Made by a program: the position numbers and the translations under genes. A stretch of 64,000 bases of DNA, from positions 28,427-92,426 of the forward strand of contig JAMQPK010000235.1 in NCBI GenBank assembly GCA_023717525.1, in the 5' to 3' direction. Below are positions 7,835 to 63,396 of this stretch, one piece after another. This stretch comes from Vicinamibacterales bacterium (GTDB lineage: Bacteria; Acidobacteriota; Vicinamibacteria; Vicinamibacterales; JAMQPK01). Position 1 is the first letter of the stretch; each line of letters begins with the position of its first letter. The notes under the pieces are model-generated. The model saw only the letters and a list, made by a program, of their open reading frames with translations, did not search any database and was not told where the DNA came from.

Positions 7835-7886
7835 ATTTGAAATGTAAAATCTGAAATTTCAAATTTCAGATTTCAGAGTTCCAGAT
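7835..7886. repeat. AT-rich 7-bp periodic micro-repeat hairpin (TCTGAAA/TTTCAGA family)
   Basis: TTTGAAA/TCTGAAA words are followed by their complements. Perfect 12-bp stem AAATCTGAAATT (7847-7858) / AATTTCAGATTT (7862-7873) with a 3-nt loop. Confidence 0.8.
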
Positions 7887-7890
7887 TGAC

Positions 7891-7926
7891 GAGGGCCGGG
7901 AGGAATTCTTCCCGGCCCTCTTTTTT
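7891..7926 (+). terminator. rho-independent terminator between convergent genes
   Basis: 10-bp GC stem GAGGGCCGGG (7891-7900) / CCCGGCCCTC (7911-7920), followed by TTTTTT (7921-7926). Confidence 0.7.
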
Positions 7927-7927
7927 G

Positions 7928-10018
7928 CTAGGGCAGAGCGAGCGCGATCAACTCGGCGGGCCGCGCCGGCGCCGAGACGGATACGACGATGTACTGCTTG
8001 TTGTTCAGCATGTAGGTCATGGGCACGCCGGTGGTATTTGCCGGTAGCAGAATCTCGGAGACGATCTCGCCGGTCGCCTTGTCGTACGAGCGGAACCACG
8101 ATCCGGTTTGTCCGTTCACGGTCTCCAATGGGCCGCGTTCACCAGCCCAGAGCAGCGTCTTCGTCACCATGATGCCCAGCCGCCCGCCACGGCCGGTCTT
8201 GGGGATATCCACGCCTTTCAGCATGGGGTGGTTCTTGATCGCGTCGGGCGTGTTGCCAACCGGCTTCATCCAGACGTGATCGCCGGTGTTCATGTTGATC
8301 GCCGTGATGCGGCCGTACGGCGGCTTCACGAGCGGCAACCCGAACACGGTGGTCGGCGGAAGCGCCGGTCCTGCCCCCGCACCTCTCGCACCTTCCGCAC
8401 CCGCCGCACCTCCCGCACCTCTTCCTCCTCGCCCTCCCGCCGCCGCGTCGTCGCCTCCGCGGCCTCCACGTCCTCCGCCTCCTTCACCGCCGCCGCCACC
8501 GCCCTGGATGTAGTTCATGTTCGAGCGTGACGGATCGTGAATGAGGCTCAGGCGCGTAGGCGCCGTCGTCGAAAAGATGTACACGATGCCCGTTTCGGGG
8601 TCGAAGCAGCCGCCTTCCCAGTTCGCGCCGCCGGTTGCCGCCGGCAACATCAGCAGTCCGGCCTTTCCTCCTTCGCCCATCACGATCGGTGGAGTGAAGA
8701 TCGGACCTATCTTGTGCAGGCCGGCAATGCGAAGGGCCTCGGCCTTGATCTCCGGCGTCCAGTCGAGCAGATCCGCTTCCGAGACACCCTGGCGTTCATA
8801 TGCTGCCGGTTTGGTGGGGTACGGCTGCGTCGGCGAATACCACTCGCTCGGAACGGTGCCTTTTTCAACCGGCTTTTCGACAATCGGCCACACTGGCTGA
8901 CCGGTCATCCGATCGAATGTGTAAAGCCAGCCCTGCTTTGATGGCACCGCGACGGCTTTGATGGCTTTGCCATCGACCGTGATGTCCATCAGGATAGGTG
9001 GGGAAGGGAAGTCCCAGTCCCAGATATCGTGATGGATCGCCTGGTAGTACCAATAGCGTTTGCCGGTGTTCAGATCGAGGCTGACCACGCAGTCCGTGAA
9101 GAGATTGGCGCCGGGCCGATGACCGCCGAAATAATCGCCGGTCGCCATCTCTGTGGAGAGGTAGACACGATTGGCAACTTCATCGATCGTGATCGCGGCC
9201 CAGTTGCCGGCGTTGCCGGTGTACGACCACGAATCGTTTTCCCAGGTTTCGTTGCCCTGTTCACCCGGCTGCGGAATCGTGTGGAAGATCCACAGGCGCT
9301 TCCCGGTGCGCACGTCGTATCCGCGTACATAGCCCTTGGTGTTCTCCTTCGTCTTGGGTGCGCCACCGGGCAGATGGGCGGCACCGATGACCACGACGTT
9401 GCCACCGACCACCGGAGGAGCGTTGATGCCGATCTCGCCGGTAATCGGATCGACTGACGGCTGATCCAGCTCGGTCTTCAAATCGACGACACCGTTGCGT
9501 CCGAACGACGAGACAGGGATTCCCGTCTTCGCGTTGAGCGCCACAAGGTGATAGCCGGGAGTGATCGTCAGTATCCGCTCGTCGCCCTTGCCGTCGGTCC
9601 AGTAGGCGACACCGCGGCCCGATCCCTGACGCGGCGCACTCTCGCCGCGCTTGCCTTCGTCCATGCGCCACATCCAGAGCTGTTCGCCCGTGGTGGGATC
9701 GAGCGCGACAACGTTGCGCCGTGTGCCGGCCTGCGCGTAGAGGACGCCGTTGACCATCAGCGGCGTCACCTGCATGTTGTAGTCGGGCCGCGGGCCGAGA
9801 TTGTCCGTCTTGAAACGCCAGGCAACACGGAGGTTCTTGGCGTTCTCTTTATTGATTTGGTCGAGGGGCGAGTATTTCGTGCTGCCAGGCTCGCCGGCGT
9901 AGGCGCGCCACTCGCCGTTCTTCGTGCCGTATTGACCCGCCACCGGCGCCGTGCTCCACGCAAGAAGCAGCGCTAAGGGAACAAGCCGAACGATTCTGCG
10001 ACAGCGGGCCAGCGACAT
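7928..10018 (-). CDS. PQQ-dependent dehydrogenase (quinoprotein 8-bladed propeller), secreted, paralogue 1
   Basis: Signal peptide. EWRAYAGEPGSTKYSPLDQIN...LRVAWRF N-terminus, HHDIWDWD motif, W-rich propeller repeats. AAGGAG RBS before ATG 10018. Gly/Arg-rich insert at aa 506-552. Confidence 0.88.
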   Translation of the reverse strand: MSLARCRRIVRLVPLALLLAWSTAPVAGQYGTKNGEWRAYAGEPGSTKYSPLDQINKENAKNLRVAWRFKTDNLGPRPDYNMQVTPLMVNGVLYAQAGTRRNVVALDPTTGEQLWMWRMDEGKRGESAPRQGSGRGVAYWTDGKGDERILTITPGYHLVALNAKTGIPVSSFGRNGVVDLKTELDQPSVDPITGEIGINAPPVVGGNVVVIGAAHLPGGAPKTKENTKGYVRGYDVRTGKRLWIFHTIPQPGEQGNETWENDSWSYTGNAGNWAAITIDEVANRVYLSTEMATGDYFGGHRPGANLFTDCVVSLDLNTGKRYWYYQAIHHDIWDWDFPSPPILMDITVDGKAIKAVAVPSKQGWLYTFDRMTGQPVWPIVEKPVEKGTVPSEWYSPTQPYPTKPAAYERQGVSEADLLDWTPEIKAEALRIAGLHKIGPIFTPPIVMGEGGKAGLLMLPAATGGANWEGGCFDPETGIVYIFSTTAPTRLSLIHDPSRSNMNYIQGGGGGGEGGGGRGGRGGDDAAAGGRGGRGAGGAAGAEGARGAGAGPALPPTTVFGLPLVKPPYGRITAINMNTGDHVWMKPVGNTPDAIKNHPMLKGVDIPKTGRGGRLGIMVTKTLLWAGERGPLETVNGQTGSWFRSYDKATGEIVSEILLPANTTGVPMTYMLNNKQYIVVSVSAPARPAELIALALP

Positions 10019-10033
10019 ATAGACTCCTTTGCC

Positions 10034-10127
10034 TAAAGTTCTAAAGTTCTAGAGTTCTAAGGTTCTAGAGTTCTACGGTTCCAGGTTCGAACTCTAGAAC
10101 CCTAGAACCGTAGAACCCTAGAACCTT
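10034..10127. repeat. 8-bp periodic inverted micro-repeat array (GGTTCTAG/CTAGAACC family)
   Basis: About 6 GTTCTANN words, then about 4 CTAGAACC-type words. Arms 10059-10081 and 10105-10127 pair at 22 of 23 positions (hand alignment). Central palindrome GTTCGAAC at 10085-10092. Confidence 0.85.
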
Positions 10128-62822: not shown

Positions 62823-62850
62823 CGTGTGCTCCGTTGTTAATAGAAATTCG

Positions 62851-63168
62851 TTACTTCTTGGATTTTCCGCCGCCCGCGCTCGAGTCGATGACCGCGAGGA
62901 CTTCGTCTTCGCGCATGATCAGAAATTCCTCGCCGTCGAGCTTGATCTCCTGGCCCGAATACTTTCCGAACAGAATGAGATCGCCCGATTTCACGTCGAG
63001 CGGAATCCGGCCCCCGTCGTCCTTGACCTTGCCGGCCCCGACGGCGACGACTTTGCCCTGCTGCGGTTTTTCCTTGGCGGAGTCGGGGATGATAATTCCG
63101 CCGATCTTCTGTTCCCCTTCCTCGATGCGCTGCACGAGGATGCGGTCGTGTAGTGGTCTGGCGTTCAT
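62851..63168 (-). CDS. groS: co-chaperonin GroES (Cpn10)
   Basis: [47 protein letters not shown] 63168 with a GGAG RBS. The ORF-track TTG 63180 is less likely. Confidence 0.96.
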
Positions 63169-63236
63169 GTGTCGCTCCAACTGAGTGAGTAAAAGTGGTT
63201 AGTTCTTCCGGGTTGCGAGGACGTCCTCTGACCGGT

Positions 63237-63263
63237 TTAGCACTCGCCCTACAAGACTGCTAA
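63237..63263 (-). promoter_or_regulatory. CIRCE operator (HrcA binding site) upstream of groES-groEL
   Basis: TTAGCACTC-N9-GACTGCTAA versus consensus TTAGCACTC-N9-GAGTGCTAA (one mismatch). Lies 69-95 nt upstream of the groES ATG. Confidence 0.85.
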
Positions 63264-63318
63264 TGTAGTCAAAGCGTGGAAATTCGTCAAGAGGGGGGCA
63301 ATCGACGATTGGGGGACA

Positions 63319-63396
63319 GGTGATATGGCGATTTGATTGGGCGATTTGATTGAGCATTTCCTATCACCCAATCACCTATCCCGAAATCGCCAATCT
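63319..63396. repeat. 7-bp-word inverted array with a perfect 13-bp tandem duplication (GATTG/CAATC family)
   Basis: GGCGATTTGATTG occurs twice in tandem (63327-63339, 63340-63352). Complementary words on the right: TATCACC, CCCAATCA, CGAAATCGCC, CAATC. Confidence 0.75.

Follow-up and report, generated by a model that had tools for sequence, protein, structure and literature searches.

The 64,000-nt window analysed here (the whole stretch, positions 28,427 to 92,426 of contig JAMQPK010000235.1, assembly GCA_023717525.1, Vicinamibacterales bacterium) is a piece of ordinary chromosome, carrying two tandem pyrroloquinoline quinone (PQQ) dehydrogenase genes, leuB, two MacB-type ATP-binding cassette (ABC) systems, an AcrAB-OEP (outer-membrane efflux protein) efflux operon, ispH, gatB, ftsEX, the RNase R gene rnr, tatA, tonB, groESL, purC, a sigma-54 activator gene and dksA. 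The best relatives of its GroEL are from Vicinamibacterales metagenome-assembled genomes (90, 85, 83 and 83% identity), followed by other Acidobacteriota, and RNase R relatives were found in soil metagenome contigs. The spacers between these genes contain AT-rich tandem arrays of 7-8-nt words, with a GC fraction of 0.20-0.54 compared to 62% GC for the window. As an initial annotation of the letters had proposed, the arrays are non-coding, dispersed and periodic. Some separate convergent genes, others lie within operons, and others stand right at a start codon. We found that they are confined to non-coding spacers, that their words drift at orthologous spacers, that whole arrays are gained and lost between genomes a few percent apart and that some arrays are paralogous copies. 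The gene map, obtained from codon-usage log-likelihood and, at 59.0-60.1 kb, from conservation and a public gene call, puts every array inside a spacer.

Tandem Repeats Finder (TRF) detected AT-rich period-7/8 arrays at essentially all of the positions annotated initially, i.e., 7835-7887, 10033-10125, 18995-19061, 24989-25066, 30765-30837, 40773-40865, 54952-55000, 55249-55307, 61154-61183 and 63327-63352, and a weak one at 60070-60092, with 3-10 copies and 70-100% matches. The named words GGTTCTAN/NTAGAACC, ATTGNNG/CAATC, TCTGAAA/TTTCAGA and ACCAACG/CGTTGGT are present on direct reading. The 14 listed arrays occupy 11 spacers rather than 12, the pairs 18940 and 18996, 24993 and 25037, and 54946 and 55247 each sharing a spacer. 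A strong period-7/8 array is present in 7 of 30 spacers of at least 45 nt, compared to a mean of 0.02 and a maximum of 1 in 100 dinucleotide shuffles, which excludes chance. The word GGTTCTA occurs 12 times in the 5.1 kb of non-coding and not once in the 58.9 kb of coding sequence of the window. In the window and its closest relatives (the close clade), the non-coding 12% fraction holds 43 of 44 period-7/8 arrays, and the repeats that TRF detected within genes of the window have periods of 9, 12 or 18. The arrays correspond to no known RNA family: a single tRNA-Leu was all that Rfam at the gathering threshold and ARAGORN gave for the window. A CRISPR array was ruled out, the units being 7-8 nt long and contiguous, with no spacers.

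Each spacer was folded as RNA and compared with dinucleotide shuffles. The arrays fall into two structural classes, inverted-pair hairpins, some of them built around a canonical terminator, and unstructured single-arm arrays abutting start codons. The hairpin folding that had been described as usual was detected for six of the 11 spacers (z-scores from -2.1 to -11.7) and not for four single-arm spacers, whose folds are slightly weaker than those of shuffles (z from +1.0 to +1.4). Four of the hairpins are built from array words alone. The near-perfect 38-bp hairpin at 40773-40865 (GGTTCTAN x5 and NTAGAACC x6 by TRF; inverted repeat I6, 92% complementary) occupies an entire convergent spacer and has no GC core and no T-run (spacer 40771-40866, z -11.7, minimum free energy, MFE, -61.5). 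Its observed energy was matched by only 4 of 500 unit-order shuffles of one arm, so that the arms are mirror-matched and form a true palindrome. The octamer array at 10033-10127 on the minus strand (GTTCTANN x6, NNTAGAAC x5; TRF period 8/16, inverted repeat I7) separates the tandem PQQ-dehydrogenase genes and stops shortly ahead of the downstream gene's AAGGAG Shine-Dalgarno sequence and ATG 10018 (spacer 10019-10133, z -8.6, MFE -59.7 on the sense strand); arm matching was not significant for this hairpin on the plus strand (281 of 500 shuffles). An imperfect GATTGAG/CAATC hairpin array at 30761-30847 (minus strand; TRF, Pfam) separates the ABC ATPase (30852-31592) and permease (29526-30746) genes (spacer 30747-30851, z -2.1). 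The array at 63319-63396 (minus strand), between a fis-type helix-turn-helix (HTH) gene and the groES promoter, had been assigned to the ATTGNNG words, but a 13-mer (sense-strand sequence CAATCAAATCGCC; TRF period 13) present twice, together with its inverted copy, describes it better (spacer 63310-63396, z -3.4).

The remaining two hairpin spacers include terminators. At 7835-7886, in a convergent spacer, a TCTGAAA/TTTCAGA heptamer array (TRF period 7) forms a short AT hairpin right after the stop codon of the plus-strand gene ending at 7834, and is followed at 7891-7926 on the plus strand by an intrinsic terminator with a 13-bp GC stem and T6, detected by terminator scan and folding (spacer 7835-7927, z -6.6). 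The region 61049-61184 had been given a period of 8; we found a period of 7, with an A-rich and a T-rich arm enclosing a canonical GC-rich terminator core (AAAAGGCCCGG...CCGGGCCTTTT, 61103-61138) that is conserved in the orthologous spacer of two related loci, L083 and L086 (spacer 61049-61187, z -9.6). The A-rich heptamer arm of ACTAGAA type (61049-61102, read from the sequence) is on the tonB side of this bidirectional terminator, and the T-rich CTTTCNA arm (61136-61184, TRF) corresponds on the groEL strand to an A/G-rich array that follows the groEL stop codon and precedes the terminator. A GC stem with a U-tract, as expected of an intrinsic terminator, was detected only at 7891-7926 and 61103-61138, both flanked by arrays; where the hairpin is made of array alone (10033, 30761, 40773 and 63319), the stem is AT-rich and a T-run is missing. 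The window has canonical terminators at no higher frequency than its shuffles, and all three of its convergent spacers of 90-140 nt contain hairpin arrays. We also considered the arrays as stop-codon traps in all three frames and rejected this candidate: all six frames are closed in the four main hairpins, but composition-matched shuffles by themselves close about half.

The single-arm arrays lie next to start codons. Upstream of leuB (Pfam Iso_dh), a G/T-rich ATTGNNG array of period 7-8, read from the sequence downstream of an S58 peptidase gene (18940-18996, plus strand), is followed by ACCAACG x9.9 (18996-19062, plus strand; TRF), and the leuB ATG (19054) lies within the last ACCAACG-type unit, ACCAATG, with no Shine-Dalgarno sequence (spacer 18934-19053, z +1.1). 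CTGAAAT x5.9 (24989-25030, plus strand; TRF, Pfam) overlaps the stop codon (24999) of an ABC ATPase gene, and CAATCAT x3.6 (25037-25066, plus strand; TRF) directly abuts ATG 25065 of a MacB-type permease, again with no Shine-Dalgarno sequence; the same permease start (838 aa) is called in the public record L164 (spacer 24985-25075, z +1.4). A degenerate array of the GGTTC family on the sense strand (44016-44061, minus strand; D1 family, genes by Pfam) is found in the spacer separating the membrane-fusion protein gene from acrB, ahead of ATG 43995 (spacer 43996-44051, z +1.0). ACCAACG x8 (55247-55309, plus strand; TRF, Pfam RNB) ends 1 nt before the GTG (55311) of rnr, which likewise has no Shine-Dalgarno sequence (spacer 55240-55310, z +1.1, MFE only -2 kcal/mol). 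The reverse complement CGTTGGT forms an array at 54946-55006 (plus strand; TRF), 2 nt past the stop codon of a glycerate-kinase-like gene, and is 88% complementary to 55254-55302 (inverted repeat I4), only across 253 nt. The array annotated at 60067-60106 (plus strand; TRF score 32), between a 152-aa gene (59582-60040) and tonB, is a three-unit GAACNCNG remnant, and five relatives have GGTTC/GAACC arrays in the orthologous spacer. Three other array-preceded genes of the window retain GAGG or AAGGAG. In addition, we detected a three-unit mini-array absent from the initial list, GGAGTCA GGAGTAA TGAGTTA in the sense orientation (47150-47175, minus strand), in which a Shine-Dalgarno-like GGAG is duplicated and the outer-membrane efflux protein gene has its ATG (47173).

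Array composition is related to the orientation of the flanking genes. On the sense strand, the A+C fraction of start-proximal arrays is above 0.6 in 20 and below 0.4 in 7, with A exceeding T in 25 versus 11, and stop-proximal arrays have more G than C in 40 versus more C than G in 12. On either strand, hairpin arrays with no GC terminator core invariably begin with the G/T-rich arm and end with the A/C-rich arm, as seen in the window at 10033-10127, 30761-30847, 40773-40865 and 63319-63396, at 9872-9979 of L083 and at 3655-3765 of L088; terminator-associated arrays have the A-rich arm 5' and the T-rich arm 3'.

Per 100 kb, the window has 15.6 AT-rich period-7/8 arrays, the close clade (149 kb) 14.1, relatives with rnr 65-73% identical (708 kb) 3.8 and other phyla (1.23 Mb) 2.5. 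Period 7 is the commonest in all four sequence groups, and in the window alone periods 7 and 8 tie with 5 arrays each. An array is found in 29 of the 85 close-clade spacers of 60-400 nt. The four word families distinguished initially make up only a portion of a vocabulary that is much larger and fluid, with 108 distinct canonical units among the 146 arrays of all sampled loci. Sharing of a word is far commoner within one genome than between genomes, and ACCAACG tandems were not found in any of the 160 related loci searched.

Comparison of orthologous spacers provided information about the history of the arrays. The rnr genes of the close relatives are only 76-83% identical to the window at the nucleotide level, so drift of the words is expected; one related locus, L001, is syntenic with the window over 49.5-64 kb. 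At orthologous spacers the arrays persist, and the word, the unit length (6-8 nt) and the copy number drift. The groEL 3' untranslated region (UTR) was examined in the window and seven relatives (L001, L002, L004, L018, L083, L086 and, partly covered, L161), and in every examined genome covering it the stop codon and a GC-rich terminator are separated by a heptamer array rich in purines or in A. This array reads CTAGAAA/GTAGAAA in the window, GTGGAAA in L083, GTAGAAA in L086, CTAGAAG in L018, CAGAAGT in L004, CTCAAAA in L002 and TAGTCGA in L001, and a T-rich CTTTCNA array past the terminator is found in the window, L083 and L086. Upstream of rnr, ACCAACG in the window corresponds to CCCTAAT in L001 and L082, a GGTTCTG/GAACCCA hairpin in L083, CTGACAA in L085, ACTGAAA in L086, TAGAACC in L087 and CCTGAAC in L098, some of these words being 1-2 bases apart (CTGACAA/ACTGAAA; CAGAACC/TAGAACC/CCTGAAC); no array was found at this position in L084 and the more distant relatives (65-70% identity).

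The two spacers around the 152-aa gene vary in the same manner. Between this gene and tonB, GGTTC/GAACC words are present in six of six genomes, with units of 6-8 nt in 2-10 copies and one or two arms. The spacer upstream of the gene contains a single TTCGCAGAT and a single ACGAAG in L087, GATTCGCA x4 in L085 and L086, ACGAAGA x10 in L083 and AGGAAAA x6 in L001, a series such as local amplification of different seeds in one ancestral spacer would produce.

A closer genome, L161, was reached via its identical GroES and is about 96% identical to the window in aligned flanks. L161 is without 79 nt of the 63319-63396 hairpin, having a single CAATCAAATCACC where the window has the duplicated 13-mer and the inverted arm. 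At 218-352, purC and the fis-type HTH gene of L161 are separated by a GGTTC...GAACC hairpin array that is complete and 130 nt long, compared to a gap of only 2 nt in the window (63607-63608). These differences indicate that gain or loss of arrays outpaces a few percent of point substitution. The start codon at the purC/fis-type site is ATG in L161 and GTG in the window. Logan contigs L163, L164 and L165 (runs SRR19536934 and SRR19175045) are 100% identical to window 56636-61060, 24816-28480 and 27474-28650, so the same strain was present in these samples. Otherwise, exact-protein look-ups gave contigs 100% identical to the window or nothing, and ongoing slippage is not directly visible.

Arrays also seem to be copied to other loci on occasion. 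The 59 nt of 19003-19061 recur with 93% identity at 55249-55307, 36 kb away, and their non-canonical internal block ACTGGGACTAAYG is also present in a third copy, inverted, at 54946-55006; these are paralogous copies and did not arise by independent expansion. Such copies would fit miniature non-autonomous mobile elements, similar to miniature inverted-repeat transposable elements or to REPINs (paired repetitive extragenic palindromes), that insert ready-made hairpin arrays. The recurrence of the GGTTC/GAACC hairpin family at several loci within and between genomes points in the same direction, as does the position of the inverted ACCAACG arrays on either side of a window-specific segment of 240 nt. 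The L161 hairpin could be read likewise, its junctions with purC and the fis-type gene fitting an insertion with a 3-nt TGA duplication, but they are equally explained by deletion between short direct repeats (TGA). No conserved ends or target duplications were found at the paralogous ACCAACG copies, only the internal array being shared, and the arrays as a whole have no conserved termini and no consistent target-site duplication. Lengths and copy numbers vary continuously, and arrays grade into their flanks. Local amplification is favoured by a relative in which two arrays are seen as single-copy seeds. Moreover, no transposase, REP-associated tyrosine transposase (RAYT) or reverse transcriptase was detected among the window proteins. 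Mobile elements are improbable as the explanation of the arrays, though possible for some families. The 240-nt segment includes a 36-aa hydrophobic open reading frame (ORF), MGILGRRLLAIAAVLILGHVLLFMLAYLFLDIPTCC, at 55046-55156 on the plus strand, with an upstream AAGGGG and no Pfam match; neither the segment nor the ORF has a homologue in any fetched relative locus.

The heptameric short tandemly repeated repetitive (STRR) sequences of heterocystous cyanobacteria, proposed initially as the closest analogue, are a fair one. Several STRR heptamer families are reportedly reused across the intergenic regions of one genome (Mazel et al. 1990). The STRR units are CCCCAGT (STRR1), TTGGTCA (STRR2) and CAACAGT (STRR3). 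The window unit TTGGTCG, a rotation of CGTTGGT, matches STRR2 at 6 of 7 bases, and no tandems of the three STRR units were found in the window. Unlike the STRR, the arrays belong to a different phylum (Vicinamibacterales, not a heterocystous cyanobacterium), and octamers and long hairpin pairs are prominent among them. A cyanobacterial origin of the window, to which its 62% GC and the STRR-like look of the arrays had pointed, was rejected on the GroEL and RNase R relatives.

The arrays are not undescribed as a class, in contrast to what was suggested initially, as intergenic heptanucleotide long simple-sequence repeats (SSRs) are well documented. In most prokaryotic genomes, heptamers are reportedly more abundant than any other long-SSR unit, and polymerase slippage has been proposed for them (Mrazek, Guo and Shah 2007, as summarised in PMC4679880, PMC4692102). 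The window arrays share with long SSRs the tandem 5-11-nt units beyond chance, the dominance of 7, the intergenic position of non-triplet units and the sporadic, lineage-specific distribution, and differ in that one genome uses many words and about half of the arrays are inverted pairs. We found no report of Vicinamibacteria in the Mrazek survey.

The GGGAATC/GGGGAYT repeats of Xanthomonas and Nostoc form hundreds of dispersed intergenic arrays, many of them convergent inverted pairs able to form stem-loops (Rehm et al. 2015, PMC4692102); in Xanthomonas, the GGGAATC repeats have a strong bias towards sites at or across stop codons and are found at the same positions in related species, with length and sequence varying and the single or inverted type kept (PMC4692102). 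Inverted pairs, stop proximity and positional conservation with length variation are shared by the window arrays, but the Xanthomonas/Nostoc repeats are one G-rich G-quadruplex word, while the window words are AT-rich and many, with no GGG runs. At least four G-tracts of three or more G per array, as a G-quadruplex needs, were not found in the window, and GGGATTA/GGGGATT units were detected only in L001 and L082. The resemblance of the latter to G-quadruplex-forming repeats studied in Nostoc, and the possibility that long perfect inverted repeats extrude as cruciforms, could suggest that the arrays act as DNA, by cruciform, G-quadruplex/i-motif or a nucleoid- or replication-related structure. 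We consider this hardly credible, since the window units contain no G-tracts, the 7-8 period is out of phase with the DNA helical repeat, and the close link of the arrays to gene boundaries and gene orientation speaks for a transcriptional or translational context.

TAACTGA repeats of marine Beggiatoaceae, cyanobacteria and Bacteroidetes form short forward arrays a few nt upstream of start codons, across the expected position of a ribosome-binding site and often with no Shine-Dalgarno sequence, and their downstream genes have no functional theme (MacGregor 2015, PMC4679880). The arrays directly before the leuB, permease and rnr starts are similar in this respect; in contrast, the TAACTGA system has a single word and almost no inverted pairs. 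Tandem TAACTGA was found neither in the window nor in the fetched loci. Geobacter metallireducens is described as having tandem-heptamer families of 4-5 units. None of the published words of these systems forms a tandem in the window, and we found no literature report of such arrays in Acidobacteria or Vicinamibacteria. As intergenic heptamer repeats are known from cyanobacteria, Xanthomonas and others, the arrays represent a new host lineage and not a new kind of element.

A plausible functional analogue of the hairpin arrays is provided by the repetitive extragenic palindromic (REP) sequences. REPs, bacterial interspersed mosaic elements (BIMEs) and REPINs of enterobacteria and pseudomonads are dispersed intergenic palindromes at gene 3' ends and between cistrons, where they serve as mRNA stabilisers or terminator-like barriers. 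REPs are fixed, conserved units of about 20-40 nt mobilised by RAYT, unlike the 7-8-nt tandem words of the window, in which no RAYT was detected.

ToxR binds heptad repeats in Vibrio and is a model for another explanation, in which the arrays would be multimeric binding sites for sequence-specific RNA or DNA regulators and each word family a regulon. CsrA-, Csp- or S1-type proteins have been proposed as binders of TAACTGA repeats (PMC4679880). Consistent with such sites, one word is reused at 2-5 loci per genome, arrays are located at start codons and just past stop codons, and the GGTTC core is kept in one orthologous spacer in all six genomes. On the other side, more than 100 different words are in use, unrelated words are found at the same orthologous position (ACCAACG versus CCCTAAT upstream of rnr), ACCAACG tandems are confined to the window as far as the searched loci are concerned, and the flanking genes (PQQ dehydrogenases, leuB, efflux pumps, rnr, groEL) share no function. 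Regulatory binding sites are thus very unlikely.

Taken together, the reading that we favour, with about half of our confidence, is that the arrays are STRR-type long simple-sequence repeats, mostly heptamers with some octamers, unusually dense in one Vicinamibacterales lineage, with an origin by slippage and a role as RNA modules. Regarding the origin, we infer with good support that slippage, inverted duplication, homogenisation and occasional copying to other loci have contributed. Slipped-strand mispairing would amplify a short seed in an unconstrained, AT-drifting spacer; non-triplet periods would be tolerated only outside genes, and continued slippage (concerted evolution) would keep the array homogeneous. 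An arm may sometimes be copied in inverted orientation, for example by template switching, to give a hairpin, and ectopic recombination may occasionally copy arrays to other loci. The functional part is suggested more weakly: arrays would be retained as convenient, generic RNA spacer modules. Inverted pairs would provide long hairpins at transcript 3' ends or between cistrons, extending or flanking terminators, and would block read-through between convergent genes or protect and partition mRNA. Single-arm A/C-rich arrays, not being self-complementary, would provide an unstructured leader directly before start codons, some of them with no Shine-Dalgarno sequence.

The strong rival, which we regard as possible, keeps the same slippage and template-switch origin and gives the arrays no role, so that they are purely neutral by-products persisting as the best slippage substrate. 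The huge and fluid vocabulary, the different words at orthologous spacers, the presence or absence of whole arrays between the window and L161, the occupation of only about a third of the 60-400-nt spacers and the sense strand with no folding advantage all fit neutrality, and the slippage hypothesis for heptamers is already published. Neutrality explains less well the orientation bias of the arrays relative to flanking genes, the groEL 3' UTR array that is always located between stop codon and terminator in the window and seven relatives, the mirror-matched arms at 40775, which exceed what two independent arrays would give, and the exact extension of arrays to start codons that they do not disrupt.

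Several observations weigh against the favoured reading of slippage products retained as RNA modules. We infer every RNA-level role from position, orientation bias and persistence, and persistence at orthologous spacers could simply mean that new arrays are seeded best by existing ones. The asymmetry between strands is moderate and derives partly from the fixed G/T-first hairpin polarity. A folding advantage of the sense strand, or a G-U asymmetry, was not found, the strands being about equal, with three of five favouring sense. As a general replacement for Shine-Dalgarno sequences the arrays were rejected, the picture being mixed: several array-preceded genes keep GAGG or AAGGAG, and rnr has no Shine-Dalgarno sequence in close relatives whether an array is present or not. 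The near-identical pairs among the more distant loci showed no copy-number change and were uninformative, and the favoured reading does not account for the preference for seven bases.

A more tentative, rather doubtful proposal is that the arrays are selected, self-renewing spacer material. Selection would act on sequence-independent physical properties of the transcript, namely an assured lack of structure for single-arm arrays and long AT-rich hairpins for inverted pairs, with the arrays standing in for scarce canonical terminators and for Shine-Dalgarno initiation at some genes; intergenic positions would be fixed while the word turns over completely, and the material would be replenished by copying of ready-made arrays to new spacers.

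Intergenic heptamer arrays have been catalogued for more than 30 years, and we know of no agreed function and no explanation for the seven bases. The lineage described here gives a dense and varied set, with about one third of the spacers occupied, many words, and single-arm, hairpin and terminator-wrapped forms. Since orthologous spacers show seed, expansion, inverted duplication and loss, it is a good natural system for deciding between neutral slippage and generic RNA modules, and Vicinamibacteria are available in culture. Such arrays are to be expected in the annotation of acidobacterial genomes and should not be confused with CRISPR remnants, small-RNA genes or assembly artefacts; they probably also cause breaks in short-read assemblies.

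Some additional observations concern the neighbouring genes. Two conserved plus-strand genes with no Pfam match, 59039-59548 and 59582-60040, were located between the FAD oxidoreductase gene and tonB, and a longer antisense ORF at 59075-59989 was rejected as spurious. A sequence identical to the 152-aa protein of the second gene is present in a public Logan assembly. As this gene is on the plus strand, the array at 60067 is in a co-directional and not a divergent spacer. Upstream of tonB, at 60130-60170, GGTTTTGCAnCTTGCAC ... GGGCGCAAAATA is conserved in the window, L001, L083 and L087 and is a candidate promoter or operator. Upstream of rnr, L001, L082, L083 and L087 share TATATTCA 8-11 nt before the ATG, which could be a -10 box of a near-leaderless mRNA; in the window (55290-55313) this motif is missing and the start codon is GTG.

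Ahead of groES, at 63237-63290 on the minus strand, we detected a sigma-70-like promoter (TTGACG, 17 nt, TACATT) followed by an inverted repeat of the CIRCE (controlling inverted repeat of chaperone expression) type, TTAGCAGTC-N9-GAGTGCTAA, suggesting HrcA control; this arrangement is conserved in L001, L002, L004 and L161. The PQQ-dependent dehydrogenase genes (7928-10018 and 10134-13370, minus strand) are tandem paralogues with 72-78% nucleotide identity, and both contain in-frame GC-rich 9-nt repeats of the CCCGCACCT type (8376-8483 and 10603-10691), presumably encoding low-complexity linkers. An AT-rich 197-nt spacer adjoining the sigma-54 activator gene carries two copies of a 12-mer (20523-20547) that holds the palindrome CCAATCAATTGG and uses the CAATC/ATTGG words, as in the ATTGNNG array family.

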